20,000 nt of DNA from an uncultured virus (IMG/VR IMGVR_UViG_3300025660_000004) (IMGVR_UViG_3300025660_000004); one strand, 5' to 3'; shown: positions 1,364 to 19,852, counted from the stretch's first letter. Made by a program: numbers and translations. The notes: a model not told the origin generated them from the letters alone.

Positions 1364-4300
1364 CCGTCGCCGTCGCGGATGGAGGCGTGGACGTGGACGG
1401 TGGCCCGGCGGTTGCCCTGGGTGATGCTGACCCCCTCGACATCCCTCCACCTCATCTTGTTCGGGACGAGCCAGCCCAGGCCTTCGGCCGGGTAGTCCAT
1501 CATCCAGTCGGTGTTGCCGTCGTCGTAGTCGTCATCATCGTCGCCGTAGTCGTCATCGTCGTCCCATGATGCGTAGCGAGACGGGGCACCGGCTGGTCTC
1601 GGGGTCTTTGAGGGGGCCTTCGCCTGGACCTGATCCCAGTTGTTCTTGAGCCACTTCTCGATGAGCTTGTCCGGCACCTTCTTCGCCGTCCGCAGCATCA
1701 GCGTGATGGTCAGGCTGGTGTCGTGCCACTCGTCGATGTCCTCGAAGTCGGCGGTGACCGTGAGCACACGGTTCACCACCGCCTCCGGGGTCAACTTGCC
1801 CATGAAGAAAGCTGCCTCGCCGGGGTCGATGGTCTTCAGGCCCTTGCGGATGAACGCCTGCACCTTCGCCTTGTTCGACATGAACTTCAGGACGGCAGCC
1901 ATGCTGCGGAACTTCTGCTCGACCATGAACGAGGTGGCCATGTACTGCTTGCGCGGCACGTCCCACCCGGCCTGGAACGGGATCTCCTTGCTCGTGAAGA
2001 TTCCCATGTAGTGCCCCTGGTCAGGGAGCTGGTAGCGCAGCCAGGTCTGCGTCGGAGCCGGGGTGTGGGAGTAGGCGAAGTAGCCCGGCCAGGTCTTCGC
2101 GCTGGTGTCGTCCAGGTCGAGGCCAGGGAGCTGTGCCCGGACGGCTCCCGCAGCGACTCCCCCGGCCTCCGCGACCGACTTCGCCGACCAGGCGACGGCT
2201 GCTGCCTCCCGCTCCTTCAGGTACTTGCTCCGGGCCTCCGTGGGGAAGTCCATCGCCAGGAGCACCTGGTCGGCCAGCTTCTCGATTCGGTTGTCCATGT
2301 TGCTCCCTGCTCGCTTGGTCACTTTGCCGTCTGACTTGATCTCGCGGATGCCCTTGGCAGCCTCCAGTGCAGCACCAGCCGAGGGGTGGCCCTCCAGAGC
2401 CCAGACGCCCTTGCCGCTGACCGGATACCACTTCTTGTCCCCGTGGACGTTCTGCCGAACGGTGTGGGGAGCGAACTTGCTGGTGGGCTTCCCCGGCACC
2501 TGCTGAACGGAGCCTGCCGCCAGGAGGATGCTGCGAGCCGTGAACGCCCGCTCACGGCGTCGGGCCGCCTGCTTGGGACTCGCGGTTGCCGAGGCCACCC
2601 GGACGCCACCATGACGCTGCTGGAGCAGGTAGAGGGTCGTCTCGTGGTTGTTCGCCAGTGTCCGCAGGAAGTCGTCCAGCCCGAGCGAGAGCTGACCGAG
2701 CCCTTCGAGTTCCGCCACGATGTCCTTCAGCACCACCTGGAACACCCGCTCGCCGTGGAGCCCACGCTCGAAGGGGCAGGAGATGGCGGCCAGAGCCGTC
2801 ACCATCTTGTGCATCGCGGCTGCCTGGTTCTCGGGGTCCACCGCCGAGGGGCCGAACGTGCCGACGAGCTTCTCAGCCAGGTCGTCAACCTCGCCCACGG
2901 TGGCTCCGTAGATGCGGTCGAAGAGCTGGTGGTCGCCGTAGCTGGAGTCGCCGCTGATCTGCCAGTGACTCGCCAGGTGGTTCCACTGGAGAGCACGGAG
3001 GAGGGCCAGCACCGTGCTCATCTGCCCCTTGGCCGCGTTGACGGCTCCGGGCCGGGGCTCCGTGAAGCCCCGCTTCCACATGGCAGTCCGGGGCAGGCCC
3101 TTCTTGAACATGCCCGGGCTGTACGAGCGGACCATCCCGTACTTGAGATCCTCGTACCAGGTGGATGAGTCGTACTGCGAGCTGCCCGGCCCCGTACCCT
3201 TCTTGGGGCTGGTCCTGCGGGGTCGAAGCGGCTTGGCGATGAACGGAGCACCCTCCCCGAAGGTGGGTCGCCCCACGTAGACCAGGACCGCGTTCCAGAC
3301 CCCGTCCCGCTGCTTCTCGTAGACGTAGTAGCGCCAGTCCTGACCGGAGACGCCCCGGTTCGGGGCCAGCATCACCTTCGCACCGGGCGGGGCCTTGTCG
3401 ATGAACTTGTAGTCCAGGGTCTTCGACGTACTCAGATCGAGCACACCTTCAGCAGAGGCCGCCTTGACCCGCTTGCCCTTGTTCCGGGTGTCGTTGACCC
3501 ACCGCCAGAAGGCCCCGATGGGCATCGCTGTGTACTCGTCCTTGAGGAAGAATCCGGGCCGGTCGTACTGCTTCTTGTAGAGGCCGATGGCCTCCTCGAC
3601 CGACTCGCAGCCGATGACGACCTTGTCCTCGTCGTAGGCTCCGTCCCAGGGGTTGTGCTGGTGGATGACGACGACGATGGAGCTGTCGTGGTTGTCGCCG
3701 ACGTACACGTCCAGCATGTCGCCGTCCGTGCCTTCGGTCCCACGGATCTCGCCGTAGTGGGCGTGCATGAACGTGGACCAGTCACCCTCCGGCCCGGTGC
3801 CGGAGCGGGTGCCGCCCTTGACGTTCTCCACGTCGATCTTGATGCCCTGGAAGTCGATGTAGCCCTCGAACGGGTACTGCTTGCGGACCTTCTTGGGCGG
3901 CTCCAGATTGACCGCGTGGAAGGTGTTCGGCACCTCGACGACCTTGGCGTTGGTCCTGGCGGTCTTCGAGCCCTTGGGGGATGGCACCTTTATGGCCTTG
4001 CCGTCCGATGTGCCCACCCACAGGGGGACCTGGTGGAGAGCTGGGAAGTGAGACGGCAGGTTCCTGCGACCGACCAGACCTCGGAAAGCCCGGAGCCCTA
4101 GCTTGACCGCCTGCGAGTCGGACAATCCGGTGTAGATGAACCAGCCCTTGTGCGGGCGGACGTAGCGGAACATGCCGCCCACCAAAGTCACCACCTTGGC
4201 GTCCCGCATGAGCTTGCGCTCCATCGCCATGATCTCGGATGACGAATGGATCTGCCGCTCGAAGTCGGCGACGGCCAGATCCTCTGGCGTCGCTGCGGGT

Positions 4301-4869
4301 GGGTCCTTGTCGAAGGTGTCCCAGTCGCCGAAGTCAAACCCTCCGGCGGCCCTCGTCATCTTGAAGTTGCCCGCCTTGACCTCGCTCCAGGCGTCCATCG
4401 CTTCCCGCTTCTTGCGGTAGCCAGAGGGTCGCCCGCCGACCTCCAGGTAGCGGCCGGTGTAGTCCGTGATGACCCACATCTTCGTCATCTGCCCCTGGAC
4501 ACCACCCGTTCGCCAGAGGACGTGCTTGTCGGTCTTGTCCACCAGCTTCTCAGCACGCTGTCCGCCGTGCGGGGGCTTCGGAGCTGCGGCGAGCTTCGCC
4601 TTGCCGTCGTGCTCGACCATGTCCTCGGCGAGCAAGAATCGGATGGCCAGCTCCTCGGCGGGGTCGGTCTTGGAGCCCCGCTTCTTGCCCTTCTCGTAGA
4701 CGGCCCAGTCCTCTGCCGTGGGGAACTTGCGGAGCTGCGGGCTGACCAGCTTGACGGCACGCTCATCGGCGTCGTCGGCGTCGTTGGCCCGGAAGTCCTT
4801 CGTCCACAAGGGCTTGGTGTCCCTGGGGTCATTGCTGAAGAGGAAGACGGTGTAGGTCTTCGTGGGCAT
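1360..4869 (-). CDS. Large multidomain (polyvalent-type) phage protein with inorganic-pyrophosphatase-like (InPase) and Dps/ferritin-like domains; ~1169 aa
   Basis: Start reassigned to ATG 4869 (GAGGA upstream). InPase-like block [13 protein letters not shown]...[21 protein letters not shown]...YDEDKVVIG (~3495-3870). Dps/ferritin-like block [24 protein letters not shown]...VDDLAEK (~2615-3020). Acidic tract near the C-terminus. Confidence 0.85.
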
Positions 4870-4879
4870 CAGGGGTTCC

Positions 4880-5326
4880 TCATTCCTGCCAGAAGTAGGC
4901 TTCAATCAGCGGGTACCCGATAACTTCGACGCCAGGGGTGCCACCACCGATAGCCGTCACGCGCTGGAGACTGAACACTAGAAGATCGCCAGGAAGCACG
5001 TCGGGTAGCGCGATCTCGTGAACCACCAGAGCCTCTACGTCGTCGGTAGTACCACTTCCGGTGTACGCCTGCCCGTCTGTCGCCTCGGTCAGAGCCCCGC
5101 CAGCGCCGGGGATGTTGTCGCCTGCCTTGAAGCTCATGGGGACGAGACCGCCGTAGGTCAGGGTCACCTGCGGGTTCGGAACCGCTGTCGTAGGGGCTGG
5201 GATGTAGATGAACTCAGGGGCCAAACCACGACGGCCACCCGAGGACTCCCCCCGGATGTCGTCCATCATCAAGTTCGATGCGCTGAGGCCCGTGTGGGTC
5301 AGACGAATCTGGATTCCCTCGGCCAC
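4880..5326 (-). CDS. Hypothetical protein, possibly virion-associated
   Basis: GTG start with strong GGAGGT RBS; Gly/Thr/Val-rich; lies directly upstream of the large gene. Confidence 0.75.
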   Translation of the reverse strand: MAEGIQIRLTHTGLSASNLMMDDIRGESSGGRRGLAPEFIYIPAPTTAVPNPQVTLTYGGLVPMSFKAGDNIPGAGGALTEATDGQAYTGSGTTDDVEALVVHEIALPDVLPGDLLVFSLQRVTAIGGGTPGVEVIGYPLIEAYFWQE

Positions 5327-5764: not shown

Positions 5765-6079
5765 CCATGTGCCGCGCTTCACCTTGCGGATGAGGCCCCG
5801 CCCGTGCAGCCCGTTGAGGGCGCTCCAGGCGCGGTTGCGGTGCTTCGGGTCATCGAACAGGGCCTCCGTGATCTCCGCAGTCGTCACCGTCTGCTCGGGA
5901 GGGAGCTGCTCGATGAGGGCGAGCACCTGGACCTGCACGGCCCCCAGCTTCTTGTCCTTCGATATGAAGCGGGGGTCGGGGCCTTCCGGCTCATCCAGGA
6001 GACCCCGGAGATCAGCGATGGCCTGGCGAACGTCCGCCTGGAAGGAGGGGCCGGACTGGATCTCGATGAGGACCCGCAT
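5738..6079 (-). CDS. Putative winged-helix DNA-binding protein
   Basis: QVLALI...VTTAEITEAL...RAWSALNGLHGRGLIRKVKRGTW fits a wHTH pattern; TGATG overlap with the upstream gene. Confidence 0.7.
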   Translation of the reverse strand: MRVLIEIQSGPSFQADVRQAIADLRGLLDEPEGPDPRFISKDKKLGAVQVQVLALIEQLPPEQTVTTAEITEALFDDPKHRNRAWSALNGLHGRGLIRKVKRGTWGSVPPTSP

Positions 6080-7086
6080 CAGTCGTCGAACAGGAAATCG
6101 AGCGGCCCGGGCTCGTCGTCTCCGTCGTCGCCATCGTCCGGCGGGGTGACCGTCTTGGCCCTGGCTGCTCGCTTCGCTGCCCTCCGTGCTTCGAGGTCTT
6201 CGTCCCGCTCGCTCACGCGGGGGTACTCAGCCCGGAGCTGGTGGTCGATGTCGATGAGGTAGTCGCGGCCGTAGTCGCCGTTCTCCAGCCCGTCGATGAG
6301 CACCTGCGGGAGTCCGTTGCCCGTCTCCTGACAGACCGCTGCCGTGGGCATACAGATGGCAGCCACGGTGTCCACGTCGCCCGTCCAGGCGATGCACTGC
6401 TTGAGCACGTCGGCCATGTTGTTGTGGAGCATGAAGGCCGTCAGAGCCGCCCTGACGCACTCCAGACCGGGAGCGTTCACCTTGCCCTTCCAGGCCACGT
6501 CGAGATACACGCCCGGCAACCACTTGGTCAGGAACGCCGGGAGGTCTGCCTTCGGCCCGAGTCGGTGGTAGCGGTGATGGAACATCAGGGCAGCAGCCGC
6601 AGCCGCGTACATCCCGTCGTGGGTCGCGTGCGTCAGGCTGGCCTGGAACATGGCGAGGTCACGGACCTGCTCGATGTCCGGGAGGAGCCCCACGGGGAAG
6701 GCCCGCATCGCCCCGCCGGACTTGTTGGAGCCCGGTCGGATGTTGTCGAGGAACTCGTGGGCGCTCGTGGTCTCGCACAGGAACTTGTAGAAGCCCCCGG
6801 CGTAGCCCGCCCGCTTGTCCCGGTGGAAGCCCTCGACCCAGGCATCAGCCAGGAGGGATGGGTTCCAGTCGCTACCCGCGATCATGTGCTCCGCGATGGC
6901 GAGGGCCATCTGCGTGTCGTCGGTGTAGTTGCCGGGCTTCATCTCCGTCCACTTCTGGTGCTGGATGTAGCCCGACAGGTCGTTGTGCGCCTTCACCACT
7001 TTCCCACGGGCGTACTCGAAGCCTGCCCCGTAGGCATCTCCAAGAGCACAGGCGAGCATCGGCCCAATGGCGGTGTGATCGTTCAT
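6079..7086 (-). CDS. ADP-ribosylglycohydrolase (DraG/ARH family)
   Basis: Motifs LGDAYG, YTDDTQMA, GGAMR, TH, GDVDTVAAI; extra acidic C-terminal tail ending PLDFLFDD. Confidence 0.92.
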   Translation of the reverse strand: MNDHTAIGPMLACALGDAYGAGFEYARGKVVKAHNDLSGYIQHQKWTEMKPGNYTDDTQMALAIAEHMIAGSDWNPSLLADAWVEGFHRDKRAGYAGGFYKFLCETTSAHEFLDNIRPGSNKSGGAMRAFPVGLLPDIEQVRDLAMFQASLTHATHDGMYAAAAAALMFHHRYHRLGPKADLPAFLTKWLPGVYLDVAWKGKVNAPGLECVRAALTAFMLHNNMADVLKQCIAWTGDVDTVAAICMPTAAVCQETGNGLPQVLIDGLENGDYGRDYLIDIDHQLRAEYPRVSERDEDLEARRAAKRAARAKTVTPPDDGDDGDDEPGPLDFLFDD

Positions 7087-8427: not shown

Positions 8428-8859
8428 CTCGAACTCGATGTCCGCCGGGTTGAACGGGTTGAGGCCCCGAACGATGAGCGCCCACTCCTCGGCGTTCGGG
8501 AGCCGCCATTCGCCGGGGAGGTCCAGCTCGTAGTCACCGTCCCCGAGCGGCTGGAAGGCCATGACACCCTCCCACACCCAGATGCCGGTCTTCGTGTCCT
8601 CGCAGCCGAACACCTCGACGCCAGAGAGCCCAGCCTCCCGCAGCTCCCGTTCGAGTGCCGGGGTGCCGTAGACGAAGGCGAGGGAGCCGCCCACCTTGTC
8701 GAAGGCGATGATGGCCTTCTGCGGGGCCTTCGCCTCGTTGTTGGCCTCGTGGCGACGAGCCCACATGAGGGTCCGCCACGTCACGATCAGGGTGATGACG
8801 AGCAAGATCACGTCGAAGTAGATCTCGTTGGCCGCAGCGAGAAACTGGTCACAGGTCAT
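8404..8859 (-). CDS. Hypothetical protein with one N-terminal transmembrane helix
   Basis: ATG with AGGAG RBS; hydrophobic stretch IYFDVILLVITLIVTW. Confidence 0.75.
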   Translation of the reverse strand: MTCDQFLAAANEIYFDVILLVITLIVTWRTLMWARRHEANNEAKAPQKAIIAFDKVGGSLAFVYGTPALERELREAGLSGVEVFGCEDTKTGIWVWEGVMAFQPLGDGDYELDLPGEWRLPNAEEWALIVRGLNPFNPADIEFEGSVPPAS

Positions 8860-8878
8860 TGAGACTCCTAGCCCCGCA

Positions 8879-8906
8879 ACTACTCGCGGGCAGGTCAGTC
8901 TGAGCC
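8879..8906 (-). promoter_or_regulatory. Phage promoter motif GGCTCAG-N16-GTAGT, copy 4
   Basis: GGCTCAG actgacctgcccgcga GTAGTTG; intergenic, upstream of ATG 8859. Confidence 0.75.
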
Positions 8907-8944
8907 TTCAATCCAGCGGGTAGGGTGAGCGACTGGAGGCTCGC

Positions 8945-9907
8945 ATGGCTCATCTGCAACTGATCAAGGGCGGCGAAGTCATGGGCATGGGCCTGGCGGA
9001 CTACGTCTGGCTCACCGACGACGGCGACATCAACTTCAAGAAGAAAAGCGTGCTCATCGCCAAGGACAAGGCCGGTGACCCGGCCCCGTTGGCGGACCGC
9101 TGGACCTTCTCGCACTGCCCTGAGTGCGACAACGAATGCGAGTGCGAGGACGCGGTGACTCGCATCCTCGTGCCGTGCTTCTACCTCCCAGACCCGACCC
9201 GGCCGAACCCCAGCTACATCGTGCTGTGCGAGGTGCGGGACGCTGATGACGTGTGTGTCGAGTCGAACTGGCGGGCGAAGCTGCGAGCAGCCATGGATGA
9301 ACGGGGGTCGGGGGCGAACCTCGTCTACTTCGGCTTCGAGCAGGACTACGCCCATGCAGAGGCCAGTGGCAGCGAGGACAGTGGGTTCGAGGCCCGCCGG
9401 TTCGCGGCTGCGGAGCGGCACATCGGAGCCATGTTCGATGCTGGCCTGCTGTTCCACAGTGCATGGAACTCGCCGGGCTCCGAGCACTGGGACTTCAAGG
9501 TCGGCGTGCGGGGCTTCCCGAACGACCTCGACCCCGACCCGCCGAACGCCCTGATCGTGGCCGACCACCTGATCATCGCCCGCTACCTGATGGAGAAGAT
9601 CTGCGGGAGCCACGGCATCGTGCCGTTGTGGGAGGACCTGGCCTCCTTCGTCTCGACCGATGCCCTGCGGCAGCCGGGCTCTGACTTCGCGGCTGAAGCA
9701 GACCGGCTCGATGAAGCCCTGACCGAACTCGGTCGGACCCGCCGCGTGCCGCACCCGACCAGAGGTGGGACGAGCTGCATCGAGCTGACGCAGGAGAGCC
9801 CCGATGACTTCGGGCACCCCGATGTCAACCCCTACAAGCTGGCCCTGGAAGTGCTCTGCGCTGCTTGGCCCCTGACCTTCCTCGAACTCACCATGAAGCC
9901 GGAGTAG
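8945..9907 (+). CDS. Glutamine synthetase type II-like protein with degenerate active site
   Basis: GGAGG RBS. Collinear GSII landmarks ADYVW, DP.R...IVLCEV, N.R, FGFEQDY, HWDFKVG, ADHLIIARYLMEKI, FVST, NPY; several catalytic motifs are altered or missing. Confidence 0.75.
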   Translation: MAHLQLIKGGEVMGMGLADYVWLTDDGDINFKKKSVLIAKDKAGDPAPLADRWTFSHCPECDNECECEDAVTRILVPCFYLPDPTRPNPSYIVLCEVRDADDVCVESNWRAKLRAAMDERGSGANLVYFGFEQDYAHAEASGSEDSGFEARRFAAAERHIGAMFDAGLLFHSAWNSPGSEHWDFKVGVRGFPNDLDPDPPNALIVADHLIIARYLMEKICGSHGIVPLWEDLASFVSTDALRQPGSDFAAEADRLDEALTELGRTRRVPHPTRGGTSCIELTQESPDDFGHPDVNPYKLALEVLCAAWPLTFLELTMKPE

Positions 9908-9909
9908 CT

Positions 9910-10623
9910 GTGCCTGGACCGAAGTGCAAAGTCGTCATCGTCGAGGGTCTGATCGGGTCTGGGAAGACCACGCTGAGTCGGGAGCTGGGCGTGGCCTTGG
10001 GGCCAGAGACCCTCACCCTCTTCGAGCCCGATGAGAAGGGGGCCGGGAACCCCTACCTCGCTGACTACTACGAGGACCCGGCCCGCTGGTCGTTCGTGCT
10101 CCAGGTCCACCAGCTTCAGGCCCGGTACCGGATGCACCTCCAGGCTCAGTGGCACGCCCTTCAGGGCATGGGCCATGCGGTCCTGGACCGGAGCTACTTC
10201 GGGGACACCGCGTTCGCCCGCCTCCAGCTCAAGGGCGGGATGATGACCGAACGGGAGTTCGCCACCTACAGCAGCATCTACCAGGCCATGACCGCCGGGG
10301 TGCTCCTCCCCTCCGTCTGTGTCCGCGTGCTGGCGTCGCCGGAGATCTGCGGGCGTCGTGTGGCGAAGCGGATGGAGAAGGAGACCGGCCGGAAGTGCGA
10401 GCAGGCCATCGACCTCGACTACCTGCGTGGACTGGAGACCGAGATCGACCACATGGTCGATGTGCTCCGACGCATGGGTGTCGTCGTCATCGACATGGCG
10501 TGGGACGTGGATCGGGAGTCCCCGGAGATGCGAGCTGGAGCCATCGAGGCCCTGGCATCCCGCATCGCCGCCATCACCCCGCCGGACTTCTTCCTCGATA
10601 TGCACCGTCGAGCAACCCCCTGA
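9910..10623 (+). CDS. Deoxynucleoside kinase (dNK family)
   Basis: GTG 9910 with GGAG RBS; P-loop VEGLIGSGKTT, FEP, YY.DP.RW.F..Q, DRS..GD..F, YL..L. Confidence 0.88.
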   Translation: MPGPKCKVVIVEGLIGSGKTTLSRELGVALGPETLTLFEPDEKGAGNPYLADYYEDPARWSFVLQVHQLQARYRMHLQAQWHALQGMGHAVLDRSYFGDTAFARLQLKGGMMTEREFATYSSIYQAMTAGVLLPSVCVRVLASPEICGRRVAKRMEKETGRKCEQAIDLDYLRGLETEIDHMVDVLRRMGVVVIDMAWDVDRESPEMRAGAIEALASRIAAITPPDFFLDMHRRATP

Positions 10624-10683
10624 CCAACTGCCCGTTGGCCACGGAAACAACCAAAGCCTTGTGCTGCATGGCTTTGCGGTCTG

Positions 10684-10986
10684 GAGAATCGCAGTTTCTC
10701 GGCCCTAACCCCCTCCGGGGCGGTGAAATCTGCACGCCCCTGAGAAACGTGGCTTTCTGATTGCAGAAAACTCCTCTACAGGGCCGGTTAGAGAATCTAC
10801 TGTCGTCCCTAATCGGAAAAACGACGTATAGAGCCCCATTCTCGGTGGTTAAATTGCAGCTCCACACGATTCTCTAGTGTGGTGGTCGAGCCGAGAATCT
10901 GCCGAGAAACGCCCTGATCCTCATATACGGGGGTCTGATGGGGGTGACCCCTTTGTCGCGCAATGGGGGTGAACTACCGGAGAAAC
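10684..10986. repeat. Cluster of GAGAAWC heptamers (iteron-like) in a 438-bp non-coding gap
   Basis: Plus-strand copies at 10684, 10742, 10791, 10893, 10904, 10980; minus-strand copies at 10694, 10868; one-mismatch copy at 10837. Confidence 0.7.
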
Positions 10987-11016
10987 CCTGATCCGCCACC
11001 CGAACGGCAGCCATCG

Positions 11017-11033
11017 GCCCCGAAGGTCGGGGC
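11017..11033. terminator. Hairpin downstream of the methyltransferase operon (possible terminator)
   Basis: GCCCCGA-AGG-TCGGGGC 7-bp stem about 30 nt past the stop at 11062; no U-tract. Confidence 0.3.
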
Positions 11034-11061
11034 GTGAGGGTTGCATGGTTGAAGGGGTAGA

Positions 11062-12657
11062 TCAGCCGAACAGGTCGCTGATCAGGTCCGATTCGGGTTC
11101 GCCCTTGGACGGGGCCTTCCGGCCCTGAAGCCGGGCCTCAGCCAGGTCGATGTAGTCACCCTGGAGGTCGCAGCCGATGTAGTTGCGGCCCAGCCGCATC
11201 GCCACAGCTCCGGTCGTGGCTGACCCGCTGAAGGGGTCGAGCACGGTGCAGGGGACCACGTCGGCATCGCACTCGCAGGTCGCATCCCACCCCACGGTCT
11301 TGAGGGGGTTCGCGTCGAGCTGGTTCTGGTACGCCTGCCCGAGCAGACGATGAGCGTCATGGGCACGACCGATGATGCCGTCCTTGCCCTTCATGTACTG
11401 GGACTCGTCAGACCGGCCCGCATCCACGGGGACCGTTCGTTCGACCCGCCGGACGTAGGGGGCTCTGCACTCAGAGCAGCAGCCGTATGCGCTGCTCCCG
11501 GCCTTGACCATCGGCTCCACTAGGGCTTCTGGCCAGGTGGCGAAGTGGGCTCCCTTGTAGGGCTTCGGGTTGATGGTCCACACCGTCCGCTTGCTCCGAC
11601 CACCGGCATTGCCCCAAACGCGGTCAGGGTCGGCACTGGGGTCGGTCGATACGCCCTGGTTCCACCGCTCCTGCATCAGGACACCCTTGCGCCCCTTGTT
11701 GCCCGGAGCGTGTCTCTCACCGGCCAGAGGCTCCCGGATGGCGTTGTGGTCGTAGAAGTAGCGGGGGCTCTTCGTCAGCAGGAAGACGTACTCGTGGTTC
11801 TTCGTCGGCCGGTCCCGGACGCTCGAAGGCATACAGGACGGCTTCGACCAGATGATGTCTGACCGCAAGTACCAGCCATCGGCTCGAAGGGCGAAGGCCA
11901 CCATCCACGGGATGCCGACCATGTCCTTCTCCTTGAGGCCCCCCGTGGTCAGGCTCCCACGGGTCAGGCCGGACTTCGTGTGGTCCGACCACGACGTTGA
12001 AATGCTGTCGTTGTCGAACCCCAGGCCCCCCTGATGGGACGAAGGCCGGGCCACGCTCCGGTTGTTGTAGCTGTCGCCCAGGTTGAGCCAGAGCACCCCA
12101 TCGTCCCGGAGCACCCGGCGGACTTCACGGAAGATGATGACCAGGTGGGCAACGAACAGGTCCGGGGTCGGTTCGAGCCCGAGATGGCCCTTCCACGCAT
12201 CGCACAGGCCGCACCCTCCGGTGTAGGGGATCTGGCTGGTGCGGGTCGTCCAGTTCTCGGTGTTCCCTGTGTCCTTGACCCCGATCTGGATGCCCCGCGT
12301 CTCGACATCGTCATGCTCCGTCTCGATCTTGCAGTGGGAGCAGACCGTGGTGGTCTCCGAGTCGGTGGCCCAGTCGGTAGTGCCGAACCGGCCACACCCG
12401 CTGCACTGCCGCTTCGCCGGGGGCACCGGGTTCCGACGATCCGGGTCGCCCCACTGGTGTTCGCACTCAGAGTCGCCACCCCACACCTGGGGCTCCCCGC
12501 CGTAGTCCCGGAGCCCCCAGTAGGGAGGCGAGGTCGCCGCCATCTGCACCGACCCCTCCGGTAGATCCTTGAGCGTGTCGAGCACGTTCTGGCCGTACAG
12601 GAGCGTCCCCTCTGTGGGGTCGTCCCCAAGGCCGTACTGGATGATCCGCTGCTTCAT
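11062..12657 (-). CDS. DNA amino-methyltransferase, beta class (N4-C/N6-A family), paralog A
   Basis: N-terminal [35 protein letters not shown]-terminal [10 protein letters not shown]; Cys-flanked inserts. Confidence 0.93.
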
Positions 12658-14084
12658 CCGAACAGGTCTCCGATGGGGTCTTCGGTGTCGGGGTCCTTCG
12701 ACGGGGCCTTGCGTCCTGTCAGACGAGCCTCAGCGAGGTCCAGGTAGTCGGGCTGAAGGTCAGTCCCGACGTAGTTACGCCCCAGACGCATCGCCACGGC
12801 CCCCGTGGTTGCCGACCCGCTGAAGGGGTCGAGCACAAGACACCTGGTCACGTCGGGGTCCTTGCACTTGCAGGTCTGCTCCCAGCCCACGGTGGTTCGT
12901 TTGGATGGTGGGATACCACCACCGTGCGTCGGAATCGTGTAGCCATCGGTTCGACCACCCACATTCCTGGTGCGTGAGATTCCTTCGGGCACCACCACGT
13001 CCACCATCCGCTTGAACGGTGCCCGGCACTCAGAGCAGCAGCCGTACTCAGAGCTGCCTGCCTTGACCATCGGCTCGACCAGCTCCTCGGGCCACACCGC
13101 GAAGTGAGCACCGGGGTACGGCTTCGGGTTCACGTTCCACACCGTCCGCTTGTTCCGACCGCCGTTGGCCGAGGGGTCGATGTTGTTCGGCTTCGTGTAG
13201 CCGTCCTTGCGCCCGCCGACGTTCCGTTCGCTCGTCTTCTTGGCCCCGTCCCGACCCATCCGGGCGTCCGCGAAGCCCTCACGGATGGCGTGCTGGTCGT
13301 AGAAGTACGACGACTCCTTGGTCAGCAAGAAGATGAACTCGTGTGCCCTCGTCGGCCTGTCGGTGACGCTCTCCGGCATGGGGTTGCCCTTGGCCCAGAT
13401 GATGTCCGACCGCAGATACCAGCCGTCGTCCTGGAGCCCGAAGGCCACCCGCCACGGGATGCCGACCAGGTCCTTTGTCTTGAGGGTGCTGACCCCTCGC
13501 CGCTTCTTGGACGTGTAGGCGACCTTGCTGTCGCCCCCCACCGTGGTCTGCTTGCTCCCGGCCTCGTTGCTGGGAGCGCCGGGTGCGAAGCCCCCGCTGC
13601 CGTTGTAGCTGTCGCCGAGGTTCAACCACGCGATGCCATCAGGCCGGAGCACCCGGCGGATCTCCTCGAAGACCTCGACCATGTGCTCGACGTACAGGGC
13701 CGGGCTCGGCTCCAGACCGAACTGACCGAGCCACGCACCGCACAGGCCACACCACGACTGCGGAGACGCTGTCGCGTCTGCCTGCTGGGGGTAGGTCTCG
13801 TTGCTCTGCCACTTCGTCTGCGGCACCTGTCCACGGTTCCCACGGTGCCCGAGGTAGCCCTCCTCCTGACCCCATTCGTGCTCGCAGTCGGGGTCTCCAC
13901 CCCATACCGACGCCTCGCCACCGTAGTCGCGCAACCCCCAATACGGAGGCGATGTGCAGACCACCTGGACGCTCCCGGCCTCCAGCAGCCGGAGACTCGC
14001 TCTCACGTCCTGGCCGTACAGCAACCGTGCCTCCGGGGGGTCGTCACCGAGAGGCCGGAAGACGATACGGTCGATCACGCTCAT
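12654..14084 (-). CDS. DNA amino-methyltransferase, beta class, paralog B
   Basis: [43 protein letters not shown] overlaps at both ends. Confidence 0.93.
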
Positions 14085-16561
14085 GCGAACAGCTCTCCGA
14101 TCAGGTCAGGCTCATCATCGTCCTGTGGGGCCTTCCGGCCCTCCAGACGAGCCATTGCCAGCTCCAGATACTCCGGGTTGAGATCCAGGCCCGTGTAGTC
14201 CCGCCCGAGCCGCATGGCGACCACCCCGGTCGTCCCCGACCCGCTGAAGGGGTCCAGTACGACACAGGGCTCAGGGTCGTGCGGCCCGCACTCGCAGGTC
14301 GGCCCCCACCCCGTCGTGATGCGCTTCTTGGGCTCGATGCCACCGGCCCCCTTGAGCTTCAGACGGTCGTAGTCGAGGGGGTCGTCACCCTTGCGGTCGC
14401 CCGTCAGGTTCTCGCCGGTCCCCTCATGCTTGATGCTCCCGCCAGCCGTCTCCATGATCCGCTTCCACGGACTCCGGCACATCGGGCAACGGCCCCTTTC
14501 GCTGCTGCCCGCCTTGATGAACCGCTCGGCCAGCATCGGCGGCCAGACCGCGAAGTGCGCGCCCTTGTAGCCGGTGGTCGCCACCGCGAAGATGTCGCCC
14601 GGATTCTTGCCGGAGGCATTGAACAGGCCGCGACCCACTCGGCGGGGGCTACCCGCCAGCGCACCAAGCTGGCCATCCGTCTTGTCCATCTTCCGGCTGC
14701 CCTCGCCCGACTCGAACCACTGCTGGGAGGGGACGAACTCGCCGTCGTCGGTGTAGGTGCCTGACTCCAGAGGGACGCGGACGGCTTCGAGGTCGAAGTA
14801 GTACCGGGCCTGCTTGGCGAACAGGAACACGTGCTCGTACTTGCAGGAGAAGCGGTCGGCCACGCTGCTCGGCATGGCGTTGCTGTTGTGGGTCAACAAC
14901 CCCGACGCCGTGGCGAACAGATGGGGATCACCCCCCACCTCCACGTCGTAGAAGATGCGCCCCTTGGCCTTGCGGATGGCTGCTACCTCTGCTCGGTCCT
15001 TCTCATTGTGGTGTCCACTTCTGCCCCATCGCCACTCCCCTCTGAAGATGGGCTGTCGCTTGCCGAAGCCGGTTGCGAAGGCTGGCTTGAGGGTGAGGAT
15101 CGCCCCAAGACGAGCCGCTAGCGTTCGGAGATCCCTTGCCAGGTTGTTGTTTCGGCAGAACCCCAGTCGGAACCGTGGATTCGCAGGGTCGTCGTGCCCG
15201 TCGCCGTGGAGGTAGCCATCAACCACAGCCTTGAGGAACGTGTTGCTCCGCTCCCAGCACCGCATGGACAGGTGCTTGTCCTGGGCCACCCTTCCGCTGA
15301 TGTAGGTGTCGATGATCCCATGGAGGACTGGGCCGTACAGGTTGACCGTTGCCGCCTGACCGGCCTTTGCATATACCTGGCAGGTTCCGTGGAAGTCTTC
15401 GGCAATCCGGCAGAGCCGGTCGTACCGGGCTGTTTCCTTGATGTGCCCGGCGATCTGGATTGCCTTACCATCATCGCCCCGACTGCCCTCTGCGAGGTAC
15501 AGCCCTACGAACCACCCCACGTCCTCATCGGGCAAGCATGAGGGAGAAGCCGCGTCATTGTCCGGCAAGGCAGTGGACAGGACCACATCGCCCACCACCA
15601 GATCAGCACCAGCCACCAGACCTCGCTGTGTGGGCCAGCGGTGCTCCGACGTACAAGTGATGCGCTCACCCGACCGGAACTCGATCTCCAGCCCCTCTGC
15701 CTCGACCTTCTCCCACCGAACTACCTGAGTCCAGCGAGACCCGTCCCAAAGCTCCACCGTTGCAGGGTCAAGCCGCACCAGGTCCTTGAGCATCGCGGGC
15801 ATTTCACCCTTCTGGGTCCTGGCATAGAGCCTGGTGCCTGCTCCAAGGCACTTCTGCCAAATTATGTCGTTGCGGAGCCACCAGCCGTCCGCCTGCAACG
15901 CCAGAGCGACCCGCCAGGGCACCCCCACCAGGTCCTTGTCCTTCAGGCCCTTCACGCGGGGCTTCCCGATGATGATGTTGTCGCGGTAGTCCTTGTCGTC
16001 CTTCTGCCGCTGGCCCTCTCGCCCACCGAGGTTCGTGTAGTCCTTGGCCGCGTGGCTCATGTAGCTGTCGCCGAGGTTCAGCCAGAAGGTCCCGGTCGGG
16101 TGCAGCACCCGGTTGATCTCCCGCCCGATGATGACGATGTGCTTCACGAACAGATCAGGCGACGGCTCCAGCCCCAGACAACCCCTCCAGGCGTCGCACC
16201 TCAGACAGAACGCGCTGCTGCGTGGGGGCACCATGCTGTGCTCCACGGACCGCTTGATCCCCTCTGCGGAGATGGCGTTGCCACCGCTGGCCGCCCCCAG
16301 GGTGCTGTTTGCGAAGGACGGCTTGGTCTGACCCGGCACCTTGATGTCGTCGCCCCAGTCGTGCTCACAGTCGGGGTCACCACCCCACACCTGCTGACCG
16401 ACCCCGTAGTCCCGCAGAGACCAGTAGGGGGGCGAGGTGCAGCAGACGTTGATGCTGTTGTCGGGGAGCAGCCGGAGAGCGTCGAGGACGTTCAAGCCGT
16501 AGTAGAGGTTGGCCCTGGGCGGGTCGTCACCCAGGGCTCCTAGGACGATGGTGGGCTTCAT
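14081..16561 (-). CDS. DNA amino-methyltransferase, beta class, paralog C, intein-containing (~504 aa after splicing)
   Basis: [19 protein letters not shown]|intein|[21 protein letters not shown]. Confidence 0.93.
14885..15850 (-). mobile_element. Intein with LAGLIDADG homing endonuclease (322 aa)
   Basis: Begins CLGAGTRL; block [19 protein letters not shown]-like helices [11 protein letters not shown] and [11 protein letters not shown]; ends FYDVEV...[13 protein letters not shown] followed by Ser+1. Absent at the equivalent site in paralogs A and B. Confidence 0.93.
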
Positions 16562-17334
16562 CTGAACAGGTCTCCGATGGGGTCGTCAGCAGCCTGCATC
16601 TTGGGCACCTGATCGAGTACGGCAGTGTCAAGACGGTCGCGGGCCTCCTCGCAGTAGGCAGGCTCCTTCTCGATGAGCAAGAAGCTGCGCTTCATCCTCT
16701 GGGCCACCAGCCCCACGGTCCCACTACCCGCGAACGGGTCGAGCACAACGCCCCCCTCGTCGGTGTAGACCGTCAGCACCCGCTCGACGAGCGCCTCCGG
16801 GAAGGCCGCAGGGTGGTTCACCCTCATGCTCGGGCCACCCACGGTGCTCCAGATCGCCCGCTGCGACATCTGACGATTGCGGATGAGCTGCGGACCACCG
16901 CCGGGCTTGCGGAAGGTGAAGAGGTGCTCGAACTCTGGCACGGCTCGGGGAGCCGAGATGGCGTGCTTGCCGCCCGTGATCTTGCTGAAGTCCTTCTGCC
17001 AGACCCGCTGGGCCTGGAGGACCAGGCCGTTCGCGAGCCCCTGCGACCAGTAGATCCAGCCCATCGGCATCTCGCAGGGCTCGTCCGTGCCGAGCATGTC
17101 CCTGCCGGGGATCATGTTCCCGAAGTTGAAGACGGCGTAGCCGCCCCGCTTGAGGACTCTGTGGGTCTCGCGGAAGCAGTTGTTGAGGAGCTGGAGCAGG
17201 ACCCCGAACCGGGCGTCGGGCTCGTAGTCCTTGCCGACACCGTAGGGAGGCGACGTGAACACCAGATCCACTGACTCGGCGGGAACCTGGGGCAGTACCT
17301 CCTCGAATCGTCCACAAACGAGGGCGCTCTTCAT
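16558..17334 (-). CDS. DNA amino-methyltransferase, beta class, compact (258 aa)
   Basis: True start ATG 17334 (ATGA overlap); SVDLVFTSPPY, HPAAFP, VLDPFAGSGT. Confidence 0.9.
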   Translation of the reverse strand: MKSALVCGRFEEVLPQVPAESVDLVFTSPPYGVGKDYEPDARFGVLLQLLNNCFRETHRVLKRGGYAVFNFGNMIPGRDMLGTDEPCEMPMGWIYWSQGLANGLVLQAQRVWQKDFSKITGGKHAISAPRAVPEFEHLFTFRKPGGGPQLIRNRQMSQRAIWSTVGGPSMRVNHPAAFPEALVERVLTVYTDEGGVVLDPFAGSGTVGLVAQRMKRSFLLIEKEPAYCEEARDRLDTAVLDQVPKMQAADDPIGDLFR

Positions 17335-18017
17335 TTGAACAGGTCTCCGATGGGGTCGTCTGAGATGCCCTGAAGGTAGACCAGCTCGTCGTGCTTCTTG
17401 CCTGCTGCCGTGGACAGGGTGGCCAAGGGCACAAAGGGCAGCCAATCGGCACCCGTGCCCTCACAGGCGATGACGGCCCCCTTGCGGGCCTCCACCCACC
17501 GGGCCAGGGACTCGTAGTCGATCAGGTCGCTGCCGTGGCGATAGCCAGTGCCGGGCTCGCCCCGGTAGGGCGGGTCAATGAACCATGTGGCCTCGATGTC
17601 GGGGGCGTCGGTGTAGTCGCCCTCGATGATCTGCCAGTGCTTCACCTTGTAGACGTTGGCGGCCATGTACGGCTTACAGGCCTTCCATGAAGCGACCATC
17701 ATTGGGGTCGCTGTCGCCTTGCGGTAGGTGAACCATCGCTTGCTGAACATCGCCAGCAGGTGCCACACCTCGGCCGTCAGCTCGCCCTGCACCGGGTCAG
17801 GCAAGGCTCTGATGTCCTGCTCGGTCGCCTCCTCGATGAGCCATCGCCACAGGGCGACGATCTGAGCGTCCTTCTCCACCAGGATGACCTGCTTCTGCCA
17901 GCGAGAGCTGAACAGGGAGTAGGCCGCAGACCCAGCGAAGGGCTCCACGATGACCGGGTGGACCGGGTCAGGGTAGAGGCGTGCAGTCTGTTTCTTGCGG
18001 CCGTAGTAAACGAACAT
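17331..18017 (-). CDS. Dam/D12-like N6-adenine DNA methyltransferase, alpha class (228 aa)
   Basis: True start ATG 18017 (TGATG overlap); F.YYG.K, VEPFAGSAA (motif I) precedes FIDPPY (motif IV). Confidence 0.85.
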   Translation of the reverse strand: MFVYYGRKKQTARLYPDPVHPVIVEPFAGSAAYSLFSSRWQKQVILVEKDAQIVALWRWLIEEATEQDIRALPDPVQGELTAEVWHLLAMFSKRWFTYRKATATPMMVASWKACKPYMAANVYKVKHWQIIEGDYTDAPDIEATWFIDPPYRGEPGTGYRHGSDLIDYESLARWVEARKGAVIACEGTGADWLPFVPLATLSTAAGKKHDELVYLQGISDDPIGDLFK

Positions 18018-18520
18018 CAGGCCCGCTTGTCGCCGTGGCGGTAGGGCCTGGTCAGGTTGTAGGTGTGCTTCTCGACCAGCATCGCCTGGAGGTCGATGCC
18101 CGCCCACCCGCAGAAGTCCAGCACCCGGATGACGATGTCCGCCATCTCGCTCGGGATGCCCTCCGGCTTCGTCGGCTTCTCCGGCTTGTAGTACGTCTCG
18201 GTCGGGTCGTGACCCTCCCGGTGCTCCTCGAAGGCTTCGGCGACCTCGGTGGTGATCATCAGCAGCAGGTCACCGATGTTCTGCTCACCCGTCCGCCAGC
18301 CCTTGCTGTGGGCGTACTCGTCCACGGCGTCTTGCCATGAACGGATGGTCTGGGGGAGGTCGGCGTGGGCGTTCAGCTTCCGCCAGAGGGCCTGCTTGGC
18401 GGCCTCTGCCTTGAAGGCCTTCAGCTCCCGGAGCCACGTGGCGAGCTGGTCGTGTTCGGCCCCGCAGGCGGACGCTGCGGACTTCTCATCCGCGTGCGTG
18501 ATGGCGTCATCCAGGGTCAA
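18017..18520 (-). CDS. MazG-like nucleotide pyrophosphohydrolase with short N-terminal helical extension
   Basis: TTG start with GGAGG RBS; EVAEAFE...EMADIVIRVLD...K..YN..RPYRHG. Confidence 0.85.
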   Translation of the reverse strand: MTLDDAITHADEKSAASACGAEHDQLATWLRELKAFKAEAAKQALWRKLNAHADLPQTIRSWQDAVDEYAHSKGWRTGEQNIGDLLLMITTEVAEAFEEHREGHDPTETYYKPEKPTKPEGIPSEMADIVIRVLDFCGWAGIDLQAMLVEKHTYNLTRPYRHGDKRA

Positions 18521-18550
18521 GGGAGCCTCCGTTGAACGGTTGTAGACCGT

Positions 18551-19111
18551 CTACCCGGTGGCGTCGTACCAGCACCCCCGACACCGAGCCTCGTACTGCG
18601 AAGCTCCGACCTCGATCTGCTCCACCTTACCCGCGAGGTGGTAGCTCCTATTGGCCGGTTCCCCACACTGGATGCAGACCGCGTGCAGCTTCGTCACCGT
18701 CTCCGCGATGGCCATCAGACCGGGGATGGGACCGAATGGCTTGCCCGAAGAATCCAGGTCCAGACCCGCCACGATGACCCGCACTCCGAGGTTCGCCCAC
18801 CGCTCGCAGAAGTCCACCAGGTCCAGCCCGAAGAACTGTGCCTCGTCGATGCCGATGACATCGTGACCACGGGCGTTCCGCTCGATGGCCGCGATGGTCT
18901 TCAGCGGGTGGGCGTCGAAGGTGACCCCGGGGTTGCCATCGGCTCCGGGGTGTCCGCCGATCTTGGCGGTGTGGTAGCGGTCGTCGGAGGCGTGCTTGAA
19001 CGCCTTGACCGTCTTCTGCGCGATCCTCGCTCGCCGGAGCAGGCGGACCAGCTCTTCGGACTTGCCGCTGAACATGCAGCCGGTGATGACCTCGATTCGA
19101 CCTCGGTACAC
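18551..19111 (-). CDS. tdk: Thymidine kinase
   Basis: GCMFSGKSEEL, IGIDEAQFF, VIVAGLD, KLHAVC..C and YEARCR.C zinc site. Confidence 0.95.
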   Translation of the reverse strand: MYRGRIEVITGCMFSGKSEELVRLLRRARIAQKTVKAFKHASDDRYHTAKIGGHPGADGNPGVTFDAHPLKTIAAIERNARGHDVIGIDEAQFFGLDLVDFCERWANLGVRVIVAGLDLDSSGKPFGPIPGLMAIAETVTKLHAVCIQCGEPANRSYHLAGKVEQIEVGASQYEARCRGCWYDATG

Positions 19112-19123
19112 GGACGCCTCCGG

Positions 19124-19318
19124 TCAGGTGGGCTTGATGGGCTTCGGCGTCGGCTTGGGCTTCGGGGGGGTCTTCGGGTTGCCGTAGGGGCCACCGGGCC
19201 GGTAGTCAGCCAGGAAAGCGTCAGTCGGCTCCCCCATCGCCTTGAGCACCTTGTCGTGCTCCCCCTTGACCCATGCCTCTGCCAGCGATCTGCACTCGTC
19301 GATGGTTCGTGTGCTCAT
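19124..19318 (-). CDS. Small hypothetical protein with Pro/Lys-rich tail
   Basis: Fills the gap between tdk and the upstream gene on the same strand; GC3-rich codons. Confidence 0.6.
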   Translation of the reverse strand: MSTRTIDECRSLAEAWVKGEHDKVLKAMGEPTDAFLADYRPGGPYGNPKTPPKPKPTPKPIKPT

Positions 19319-19326
19319 GCTCGACC

Positions 19327-19794
19327 TTACCCGCCGCGCTCGATCCTCCGGTGGGGGCAGACCGTGTTTGCGGCGATGAAACGAGAGGCAACCCGGCTCG
19401 CTGACGGTCTGGGGTCAGAGACGCCCGCCACCAGCTCCTTGCGGATACCACGGACCTCCTGCGCGATGAGCGGCAGGGGTCGGTCGTCGTGAAACTCCTC
19501 CAGCCACGTCCGGGCCATGTCCGCCAGAGCCTCACCGAACTCGCGATAGGTCCCCACCTTGTCCAGCGTGGTCGCCTCCTCCGCGAACGCCTCGATGGTC
19601 ATCAGGTGCTTGCAGATGCAGTCGGGGCAGTGCTTGTACGGGTGCTGAAGGTGGTCCTCCAGCAGGAGCATCTGCTTGGCGATCTCCCGCAGGTTGAACA
19701 ACGGGTCCATCAAGCTCAGTCGCTCGACCTGCTCGCCACAGGCTGCCTTGAACCGGAGGGCTGCCTGACGACGCTGTGCGATGCGGTTGTCCAT
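19327..19794 (-). CDS. Hypothetical protein with LLEDHL..P..HCPDCICKH putative metal-binding motif
   Basis: ATG 19794; helical protein with a His/Cys cluster; C-terminal RVASRF. Confidence 0.75.
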   Translation of the reverse strand: MDNRIAQRRQAALRFKAACGEQVERLSLMDPLFNLREIAKQMLLLEDHLQHPYKHCPDCICKHLMTIEAFAEEATTLDKVGTYREFGEALADMARTWLEEFHDDRPLPLIAQEVRGIRKELVAGVSDPRPSASRVASRFIAANTVCPHRRIERGG

Positions 19795-19801
19795 CAACTA
19801 C

Positions 19802-19814
19802 CGGCTGGGATAGG
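19802..19814 (-). promoter_or_regulatory. Candidate second-class (late?) promoter element CCTATCCCAGCCG
   Basis: Near-identical to 5359-5371; about 8 nt upstream of ATG 19794, which has no clear RBS. Confidence 0.4.
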
Positions 19815-19824
19815 CGGACTAGCG

Positions 19825-19852
19825 GGCTCAGGTGCCCCGCCCGCTGCGTAGT
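19825..19852 (+). promoter_or_regulatory. Phage promoter motif GGCTCAG-N16-GTAGT, copy 5
   Basis: GGCTCAG gtgccccgcccgctgc GTAGTAG; upstream of GGAG RBS and ATG 19876. Confidence 0.75.

Follow-up and report, generated by a model that had tools for sequence, protein, structure and literature searches.

Acidic tails that end in Phe bind the T7 gp4 helicase and the gp2.5 protein to gp5, and the tails of bacterial SSB are similar; the aromatic residue is the very last one. The PIP box has the form Qxx[ILM]xx[FY][FY]. Peptides that bind the bacterial beta clamp follow Q-phi-x-[L/M]-[F/L], or the hexamer Q-phi-x-[L/M]-x-[F/L], with the consensus QL[S/D]LF; they lie at flexible termini or in loops, often with acidic flanks, and the Gln is important, not essential (accessible text of a 2024 review, PMC11139829). 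In phage T4 the C-terminus of gp43, EKASLDFLFG, belongs to a region through which, as is known, gp43 interacts with gp45, and has been compared with a loop of DNA ligase, EPEGLDFLFD; the ligase peptide binds gp45 with a Kd of 10.7 uM (PMC6212786, in part). In animals a PIP box tethers DNMT1 to PCNA for replication-coupled maintenance methylation (PMC9690074, in part). Here we describe C-terminal tails shared by five DNA methyltransferases and an ADP-ribosylglycohydrolase, all encoded in a stretch of 20,000 nucleotides (nt) from an uncultured virus (IMG/VR IMGVR_UViG_3300025660_000004). The whole stretch is called the window below, and its source is an uncultured huge phage.

Compared with these systems, the tails look like a lineage-specific, glutamine-less variant of sliding-clamp-binding motifs, which would tether DNA-modifying enzymes to the replication fork. 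We give this reading a rough probability of 0.55 from the sequences. A literature search with subscription journals largely outside its reach found no paper on clamp-binding tails of phage or bacterial DNA methyltransferases, and the accessible text of the 2024 beta-clamp review (PMC11139829) contains no word beginning with 'methyl'.

Tails of the window enzymes

The window has a G+C content of 65%, and no near-identical phage record was found for it. Five DNA methyltransferase genes (MT1 to MT5) lie head to tail on the minus strand at 11062-18017, and all four of their junctions are ATGA stop/start overlaps. The genes and tails are as follows (aa, amino acids).

17331..18017, minus strand: MT1, Dam-like (alpha order) DNA methyltransferase, 228 aa; start MFVYYGRKK, the same as in its relative
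17334-17360, minus strand: MT1 tail DDPIGDLFK (C-terminus SDDPIGDLFK)
16558..17334, minus strand: MT2, compact beta-class N6/N4 DNA methyltransferase, 258 aa (PF01555, E 5e-31)
16561-16587, minus strand: MT2 tail DDPIGDLFR
14081..16561, minus strand: MT3, large N6/N4 DNA methyltransferase of the beta class, 826 aa, with an inserted intein (PF01555)
14084-14110, minus strand: MT3 tail PDLIGELFA
12654..14084, minus strand: MT4, beta-class N6/N4 DNA methyltransferase, 476 aa (PF01555, E 8e-38)
12657-12683, minus strand: MT4 tail EDPIGDLFG, preceded by a linker
11062..12657, minus strand: MT5, beta-class N6/N4 DNA methyltransferase, 531 aa, the final gene of the operon
11065-11091, minus strand: MT5 tail SDLISDLFG, without GGAG and without a coupled downstream gene
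6079..7086, minus strand: ADP-ribosylglycohydrolase, 335 aa (PF03747, E 1.8e-27)
6082-6105, minus strand: glycohydrolase tail PLDFLFDD after an acidic linker

The original prediction, made from the window alone, had the methyltransferase set end at 17360; MT1 runs to 18017, and the set therefore spans 11062-18017. The start of MT2, at first placed at an upstream TTG, is corrected to the ATG at 17334, which overlaps the MT1 stop as ATGA. The five C-termini given there match the translations exactly. The tail had been recognised on the five methyltransferases, and the sixth tailed enzyme, the ADP-ribosylglycohydrolase at 6079-7086, had been missed.

The methyltransferase tails consist of an acidic linker followed by [PL]-I-[GS]-[DE]-L-F-x. 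All six reading frames together hold 355 stop-to-stop frames of at least 30 codons, and six of these fitted a rule for the C-terminus, [ILMV]xx[LMIF]F with 0-2 residues after it: the five methyltransferases and the ADP-ribosylglycohydrolase, which ends GDDEPGPLDFLFDD. The looser word [ILV][GSA][DE]LF occurred in the six-frame translation only at the C-termini of the five methyltransferases. A degenerate DNA pattern for DPIGDLF, allowing up to two mismatches, matched the window five times, against 0.01 matches expected from 200 shuffles.

The five methyltransferases belong to two classes, as predicted originally. MT2 to MT5 match PF01555 with 107-131 bits (cut-off 26.7; E 1e-30 to 1e-38) and have SPPY before an FxGxG-type motif that binds S-adenosylmethionine, which is the beta order; in the alignment of N6/N4-class homologues S45-P46-P47-Y48 and D419/F421/G423 are conserved. 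The alpha class of MT1 follows from its motif order, FAGSA and then DPPY, with F27-A28-G29 and D148-P149-P150-Y151 invariant in 21 homologues. Its match to PF02086 (D12 class) reaches 20.2 bits, under the 22-bit cut-off, and some of its homologues are annotated as PF02086.

Tails in homologues

For MT4 and for MT1 the best 120 homologues were taken, and the motif was counted within their last 12 residues. It is present in 62 of the 120 MT4 homologues (60 in the hydrophobic-first form and two in the Q form) and in 43 of the 120 MT1 homologues, where 30 have Q-[aliphatic]-x-[LM]-F and 13 are hydrophobic-first. Among background open reading frames (ORFs) it was found in 8/560, 2/162 and 3/680, and in an internal 12-residue control in 0/240.

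For MT4 an alignment was made of 68 homologues from the 120, those omitted being mostly long or split forms. In 53 of the 68 the motif comes after a variable linker that follows the last invariant residue of the domain. This linker is 12-31 residues long (median 17) and consists mostly of D, G, E, P and A. Judged by linker length and composition in these 53/68, the motif occupies a flexible acidic terminus, as clamp-binding motifs do. Between 0 and 10 residues (median 3) follow the motif in homologues. Most of the 15 aligned proteins that have no motif terminate shortly beyond the catalytic domain.

The 30 Q-type MT1 homologues carry the canonical beta-clamp motif (QLELF, QLDLF, QLSLF, QLKLF) at the same C-terminal position as the tail of the window enzyme. 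In terms of sequence comparison, this positional equivalence is the decisive point. At 80 viral loci that encode MT1 homologues, the tail is of the Q type in 14 of 76 homologues and of the hydrophobic type in three. Eleven neighbouring ORFs with Q-type tails were scanned, and they encode nine N6/N4 methyltransferases, one amino acid:DNA transferase and one protein of no family. The transferase, a DNA hypermodification enzyme (PF18724), is encoded on an unrelated viral contig (L282:193-1170, plus strand) and ends KQLSLF.

The strict motif rule matches 8 of 120 MT2 homologues. Most of the 20 closest MT2 homologues listed end tail-like by eye, with hydrophobic-x-x-L/M-F or -L (SVLDLFGDPD, GILDLFGED, DIMDLFNE), and the more distant ones, of cellular type, are by eye without such an ending. 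Seven distant MT2 homologues (P0282, P0283, P0285, P0287, P0289, P0290 and P0291) have another tail, [M/V/P]-P-[D/E/S]-D-F in six and APEGF in the other, and in all seven the protein ends on Phe. By analogy with the tails of T7 gp2.5 and gp4 and of SSB, which it recalls, this may be a second type of docking tail on methyltransferases.

Most of the 150 representatives of the glycohydrolase family are about 280 residues long and have no extension. About a dozen longer ones are tailed by eye (DPLISELFG, LPLDFLFDE, GIFDLFG, DFLDMFG, ALDWLFADDDE, SILDLLGDDEG), and a loose motif rule flags 10 of the 150, a few of them doubtful. The occurrence of tails across these families indicates a portable module, carried by at least four enzyme families and a helicase. 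Judged from the homologues, the family-wide form of the tail is S-[I/V]-[L/M/F]-[D/E]-[L/M]-F-G, and it differs from QLDLF chiefly at position 1.

Tails in related phages and on replication proteins

The related records include a 27-kb relative (G001), with DNA 76-92% identical over the pieces it shares with the window (~8838-19831). Two larger relatives, G005 (142 kb) and G006 (169 kb), have baseplate, sheath-initiator, ThyX and actin-like genes and are 27-32% complete according to CheckV. The nearest named record, LR745208.1, is unannotated and 485,034 bp long; the genome is an IMG/VR contig rated 92% complete, its family A polymerase is ~46-50% identical, and no paper turned up in a literature search on the accession LR745208. 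Contigs of up to 376,948 bp encode proteins that are identical to MT1 or nearly identical to MT5.

In a phmmer search with the five window enzymes, covering the window and five related records, 14 methyltransferases were found, each of which has the tail, or a variant close to it, at its C-terminus. In LR745208.1, 7 of 633 greedily chosen ORFs fit a loose C-terminal rule. Five of the seven have an acidic hydrophobic-x-D-[LM]-F ending. They encode three methyltransferases, a DnaB-like helicase that bears an intein (DDVGDLFT) and a protein of 272 aa without a family; the remaining two seem to be chance matches. Three further methyltransferases of this genome carry the variants SILGMFGATND, TVLDLLEG and SLLEMLGM. 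In a 619-kb phage two N6/N4 methyltransferases end GGILDLL and PLEIGDLFGIN. Tailed methyltransferases are encoded directly downstream of DnaB in G005, G006 and LR745208.1.

A scan of 2.9 million viral contigs with one codon version of DPIGDLF gave 13 loci. In four of these the peptide is C-terminal, belonging to one MT1 orthologue and, three times, to the same DnaB-like helicase. The helicase ends AAADDPIGDLF and comes from an unrelated phage (62-91 kb) whose capsid and portal genes are T4-like and whose family A polymerase has 612 aa. The identity of DDPIGDLF in two unrelated phages favours, as far as a peptide sequence can indicate, a conserved and possibly host hub. A metagenome scan with MT1 gave no match, and a second scan with a 96%-identical MT4 homologue missed the 281-kb contig that encodes this homologue.

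These observations bear on a docking partner other than a clamp. The tail could dock on another part of the replisome, that is a T7-like family A polymerase (as T7 gp4 and gp2.5 do on gp5), the loader, the primase or a single-strand-binding protein. The lineage does have a family A polymerase and a DnaB-like helicase with no detected clamp, in agreement with the accessible text of PMC7824862, and both phages in which the tail is found on a DnaB-like helicase have a family A polymerase as well. The tails are also acidic, with a near-terminal Phe. The family A polymerases themselves share an N-terminal peptide similar to the tail core (MQGLFDILDD, MDLFELFDT, MSDVFSFLED); they are encoded in G001 (L029:8928-11918), G005 (L045:6473-9469), G006 (51082-54096) and LR745208.1 (284690-289966). 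From its sequence the peptide may be an N-terminal version of the docking motif, and its similar make-up could mean a shared partner or mark the partner site. On the other side, Phe is never final in the window, where one residue follows it in all five methyltransferase tails, and 0-10 residues lie beyond it in homologues. The free carboxylate of a terminal aromatic residue, central in T7 and SSB, is thus not conserved. Moreover, DDPIGDLF is identical across phages with polymerases of 612 and 996 aa, which suits a conserved host hub better, and the canonical Q-type motifs at the same position in homologues point to a clamp. We consider docking on another replisome part unlikely.

A sorting or stability signal unrelated to the fork was also considered, one that would send proteins to a phage compartment, load them in the capsid to be co-injected, or mark them for degradation and thereby time enzyme levels. 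Cargo-loading peptides and degrons also take the form of C-terminal, flexible, hydrophobic-ended peptides, and the tail is such a peptide, common to a limited group of enzymes. An actin-like protein (Volactin) is encoded by G005, and the building of internal structures is a feature of huge phages. The tailed set is nevertheless confined to DNA-acting enzymes, including a replicative helicase that has no reason to be packaged. The C-terminus of the polymerase, the primase and the nucleotide-metabolism enzymes are without the tail, though entry into a DNA compartment would be needed for them. Homologues, in addition, carry a canonical clamp-binding motif at the same place. Such a signal appears to us quite improbable.

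Selection on the peptide

The tails overlap a repeat at the gene junctions.

17318..17360, 16545-16587, 12641-12683 and 11049-11091, minus strand: junction repeat, family D6

The repeat contains the tail codons, GGAG within GGA GAC (Gly-Asp) and the stop overlapping the ATG of the next gene, and it takes in the first codons of that gene. It forms a 43-nt family with 81-88% identity among three copies. GGAG lies 10 nt upstream of the next ATG at the four ATGA junctions. The last codon of the tail is NNA wherever another gene follows, so that NNA together with TGA forms the ATG of the next gene. The tail nucleotides double as the ribosome-binding site and the stop/start overlap of that gene.

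G001 lacks MT2, and this indel has its breakpoints within the repeat (positions 16584 and 17329 of the window each align to G001 8551-8579), from which it follows that a methyltransferase cassette was gained or lost through the repeated junction. In place of the two window genes MT4 and MT5, G001 has one MT4/MT5 hybrid. Methyltransferase content varies in this way, by the MT2 indel and the MT4/MT5 hybrid, through recombination at the tails. No terminator-like site was found after MT5.

It could therefore be argued that the DNA is what is conserved, as a cassette of Shine-Dalgarno sequence and ATGA junction spread by duplication and recombination, with the peptide as a by-product. The four ATGA junctions with GGAG, the three tails identical over 21 nt, the 43-nt repeat, the MT2 indel at the repeat and the NNA codon all fit this. 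As the sole explanation it is largely refuted, and we hold it to be very improbable. The peptide is retained where both the downstream gene and GGAG are missing. MT5 keeps D-L-I-S-D-L-F-G with different codons; its Ser is encoded by AGC where the others have GGA, which is why GGAG is absent, and no gene follows. The position of MT5 at the end of the operon and its loss of GGAG were part of the original prediction and are borne out by the sequence; the argument drawn from them, for selection at the protein level, was right and is reinforced by a sixth N6/N4 methyltransferase of G005. This enzyme is encoded elsewhere in the genome, directly after a DnaB-like helicase gene, and ends EPMDLMDLFG; it has no GGAG and no coupled gene, and an 18-codon frame alone follows it. 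In LR745208.1 (55% G+C) D-[L/M]-F is encoded by other codons in other stop contexts, and the stop of its methyltransferase MT533 is TAA.

Codon usage gives the same picture. In the G001 orthologue of MT3 the seven-residue core of the tail shows two synonymous and no non-synonymous changes, and among the relatives the conserved D-L/M-F is written with GAC or GAT, CTG, CTC, TTG or ATG, and TTC or TTT. The original prediction had to reckon with homologues that conserve the nucleotides and not the amino acids; the amino acids are conserved, and the codons vary. With different codons, the peptide is found on three methyltransferase families, a glycohydrolase and a helicase, in genomes of 52-65% G+C and in hundreds of metagenomic homologues. 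These comparisons indicate that the tail is selected as a peptide in its own right, alongside the nucleotide constraint.

Comparison with known docking motifs

The tail was predicted originally as a docking peptide, most likely for a clamp. The part that stands is a protein-level module on unrelated domains whose closest likeness is to clamp-binding peptides; against it, the variant in the window departs from the canonical motif at two positions. [L/M][F/L] is present at positions 4-5 in 5/5 window tails. Like the beta-clamp clients Pol II, Pol IV, Pol III alpha, Hda and MutS, the tailed enzymes have a flexible acidic terminus and an [L/M]-F anchor with a preceding Asp or Glu. They differ in having Ile for Gln and Gly or Ser for the aliphatic residue, and in that the putative clients are methyltransferases and a glycohydrolase.

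The likeness to T4 is closest in the glycohydrolase, whose ending EPGPLDFLFDD contains the exact gp45-interaction word LDFLF. The methyltransferase tails share hydrophobic-x-x-L-F plus one residue with the T4 word, not the full LDFLF. Common to both systems are the acidic context, hydrophobic-x-x-L-F-G at the C-terminus and, if the tails bind a clamp here, several enzymes on one clamp; the polymerase here, in contrast, is of family A, not B, it lacks such a C-terminus, and the relatives have no detected gp45-like gene.

The other two described types fit less well. With neither Gln nor an aromatic pair, the window tails are not PIP boxes. The tails of T7 gp4 and gp2.5 and of SSB are alike in being acidic and flexible with a near-terminal Phe, in serving several replisome proteins and, for T7, in a phage with a family A polymerase; they differ in that their aromatic residue is terminal.

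Search for the clamp, its loader and the host

LR745208.1 encodes a DnaX-like clamp loader that is split by an intein (PF13177, E 3e-23, plus a DnaX lid domain), and a second, small loader-like protein is encoded directly upstream of one of its tailed methyltransferases. According to the accessible text of a survey, PMC7824862, huge and jumbo myoviruses that combine a T7-like family A polymerase and DnaB with a clamp loader 'lack a detectable clamp'. The presence of a loader and the absence of a detected clamp imply that the loader loads the host clamp, which is presumably available, or that the phage clamp is unrecognisable by sequence.

The search for a clamp in the relatives gave several side results. 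Unknown proteins near the loader had no PHROG match; two such proteins of LR745208.1 and a conserved 224-aa protein of G001 had no meaningful sequence match in the PDB, and two unknown proteins beside the polymerase had no usable match in the ESM Atlas. The conserved neighbours of the loader at six huge-phage loci were tried as clamp candidates and rejected, for they look like an Mre11-like phosphoesterase, a PD-(D/E)XK nuclease, a possible split Rad50, a Toprim protein, a NusG/KOW-like protein and a sigma-like protein. In the six loci (this region is LR745208.1 420269-422702 and loci L229-L236) the NusG/KOW-like gene, recognised by weak matches, comes after the loader gene, and four of them have a sigma-70 region 4 gene next, an order that recalls the T4 link of clamp, loader and late transcription. 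Upstream is a conserved Cys-rich protein of ~170 aa, which in two loci contains tail-like words close to its C-terminus (ILAFFGDG, VLDLVGK). The Pol III alpha model had no match in the five related records, and no bacterial-type SSB was found in the lineage. An archaeal host with PCNA, suggested by the Volactin match, was rejected, as three proteins are of bacterial type, namely the thymidine kinase, the protein with sigma-70 region 4 and the DnaX-type loader.

A number of findings weigh against the tails being clamp-binding peptides. Two positions of the canonical motif are at variance in the window, with Gln at position 1 in 0/5 tails and an aliphatic residue at position 2 in 0/5 (Gly or Ser instead), and both changes weaken the binding of peptides to the beta clamp (PMC11139829, accessible text). 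Three of the five tails share 21 identical nt that overlap the ribosome site of the next gene, and nucleotide constraint and gene conversion thus add to the likeness within this genome. The family A polymerase, expected to be the top clamp binder, is without a C-terminal tail in the related records; the primase and the SNF2 helicase of the relatives have none either, and DnaB of the closest relatives, G005 and G006, ends acidic with no L-F. The occurrence of the tail on other replication proteins, proposed as a check at the outset, is thus confirmed for the DnaB-like helicase of two other phages and fails for the polymerase C-terminus, the primase and the SNF2 helicase.

The clamp itself is a further point of this kind. 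Neither a beta clamp (PF00712, PF02767, PF02768) nor gp45 (PF09116, PF02916; these models are narrow) was found in G001, G002, G005, G006 or LR745208.1, and PCNA (PF00705) had no match in these five records. PF00712 was likewise not found in five further loader-carrying records, two of them huge phages 92% and 94% complete. The clamp searches cover relatives, including one 92%-complete 485-kb genome, rather than the full genome of the window's phage. The original prediction spoke of the phage's own sliding clamp; with none detected in the five relatives, that clamp has no gene behind it. No host is indicated either, the closest thymidine kinases being ~50% identical and coming from several phyla.

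The hub could also be a sliding clamp that has escaped recognition, or another DNA-bound ring, with the Gln-less [I/V]-[L/x]-D-L-F-G tuned to this phage hub and not to the beta clamp of the host. Every methyltransferase detected has this tail, as do a glycohydrolase, a helicase and, perhaps, the N-terminus of the polymerase. That Gln is lost systematically and a trailing Gly conserved, as read from the tails, favours a phage-specific hub, and the identity of DDPIGDLF in unrelated phages, noted above, favours a conserved one. We hold a phage-tuned ring of this kind to be fairly unlikely.

Other features of the window

MT3 is interrupted by an intein.

14888..15850, minus strand: intein within MT3, residues C238 to N558, then S559

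It has about 321 residues, from Cys238 to Asn558 and then Ser559, and lies in the conserved DIIWxK|xNxMPxS block; its flanks align to MT4 residues 232/233. The intein is also present in the G001 orthologue, and homologue P0042 carries PF14890. In LR745208.1 inteins also interrupt DnaB, the polymerase, a UvrD-like helicase, a RecD-like helicase and the clamp loader.

Apart from the tailed enzymes, the window encodes at 1360-4905 (minus strand) a protein of 1181 aa in which the one domain recognised is of the inorganic-pyrophosphatase type (PF18823, E 2e-32). Its neighbours are HD-domain, deoxynucleoside kinase, thymidine kinase and MazG-like genes, the MazG likeness being judged by eye.

Discussion

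The tail resembles the hook by which replication proteins hold on to a clamp, and this phage therefore probably methylates its DNA as the DNA is copied. We infer both the binding to a clamp and its benefit to the phage. The docking motif would consist of an acidic Pro/Gly-rich linker of ~12-30 residues followed by hydrophobic-x-[D/E]-[L/M]-F, usually Gly, and 0-10 more residues. As a portable module it would have become attached to DNA-acting enzymes, namely three unrelated methyltransferase families, a glycohydrolase and, in relatives, a DnaB-like helicase, and it would tether them to a ring clamp at the phage replication fork. The ring in question would be the beta clamp of the host, put on DNA by the phage DnaX-like loader, or else a phage clamp too divergent to be recognised.

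Nascent phage DNA would then be methylated within moments of its synthesis and escape host restriction, much as DNMT1 rides on PCNA. The likeness to DNMT1 is a functional analogy, not homology: the proposed logic is the same, a short peptide that tethers a methyltransferase to a clamp on new DNA, whereas the clamp, the motif, the methyltransferase class and the purpose (restriction escape as opposed to epigenetic inheritance) differ. A tethered glycohydrolase might conceivably strip ADP-ribose from DNA, as a counter-defence against toxins that ADP-ribosylate DNA. The same nucleotides are used again, GGA-GAC as the GGAG site and NNA with TGA as the next ATG, and recombination at the repeated junction has added or removed a methyltransferase cassette. 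A single stretch of 20-30 nt would in this way be under overlapping constraints as docking peptide, ribosome site, stop/start overlap and recombination joint.

Should the tails prove to bind a clamp, phages would link the modification of DNA with its replication as animals do with DNMT1, by means of a transferable plug-in peptide, and this would explain how every new restriction site in a genome of several hundred kilobases is protected in time. Methyltransferases and an ADP-ribosylglycohydrolase would join the short list of clients of bacterial-type clamps, to which other phages would add a hypermodification enzyme. The finding bears on the question of which clamp is loaded by the loader of jumbo phages with polymerase A, and the tail could serve as a probe or bait for the missing clamp. 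It would also be a simple mark in the sequence by which enzymes of DNA modification and counter-defence could be found in uncultured phages.

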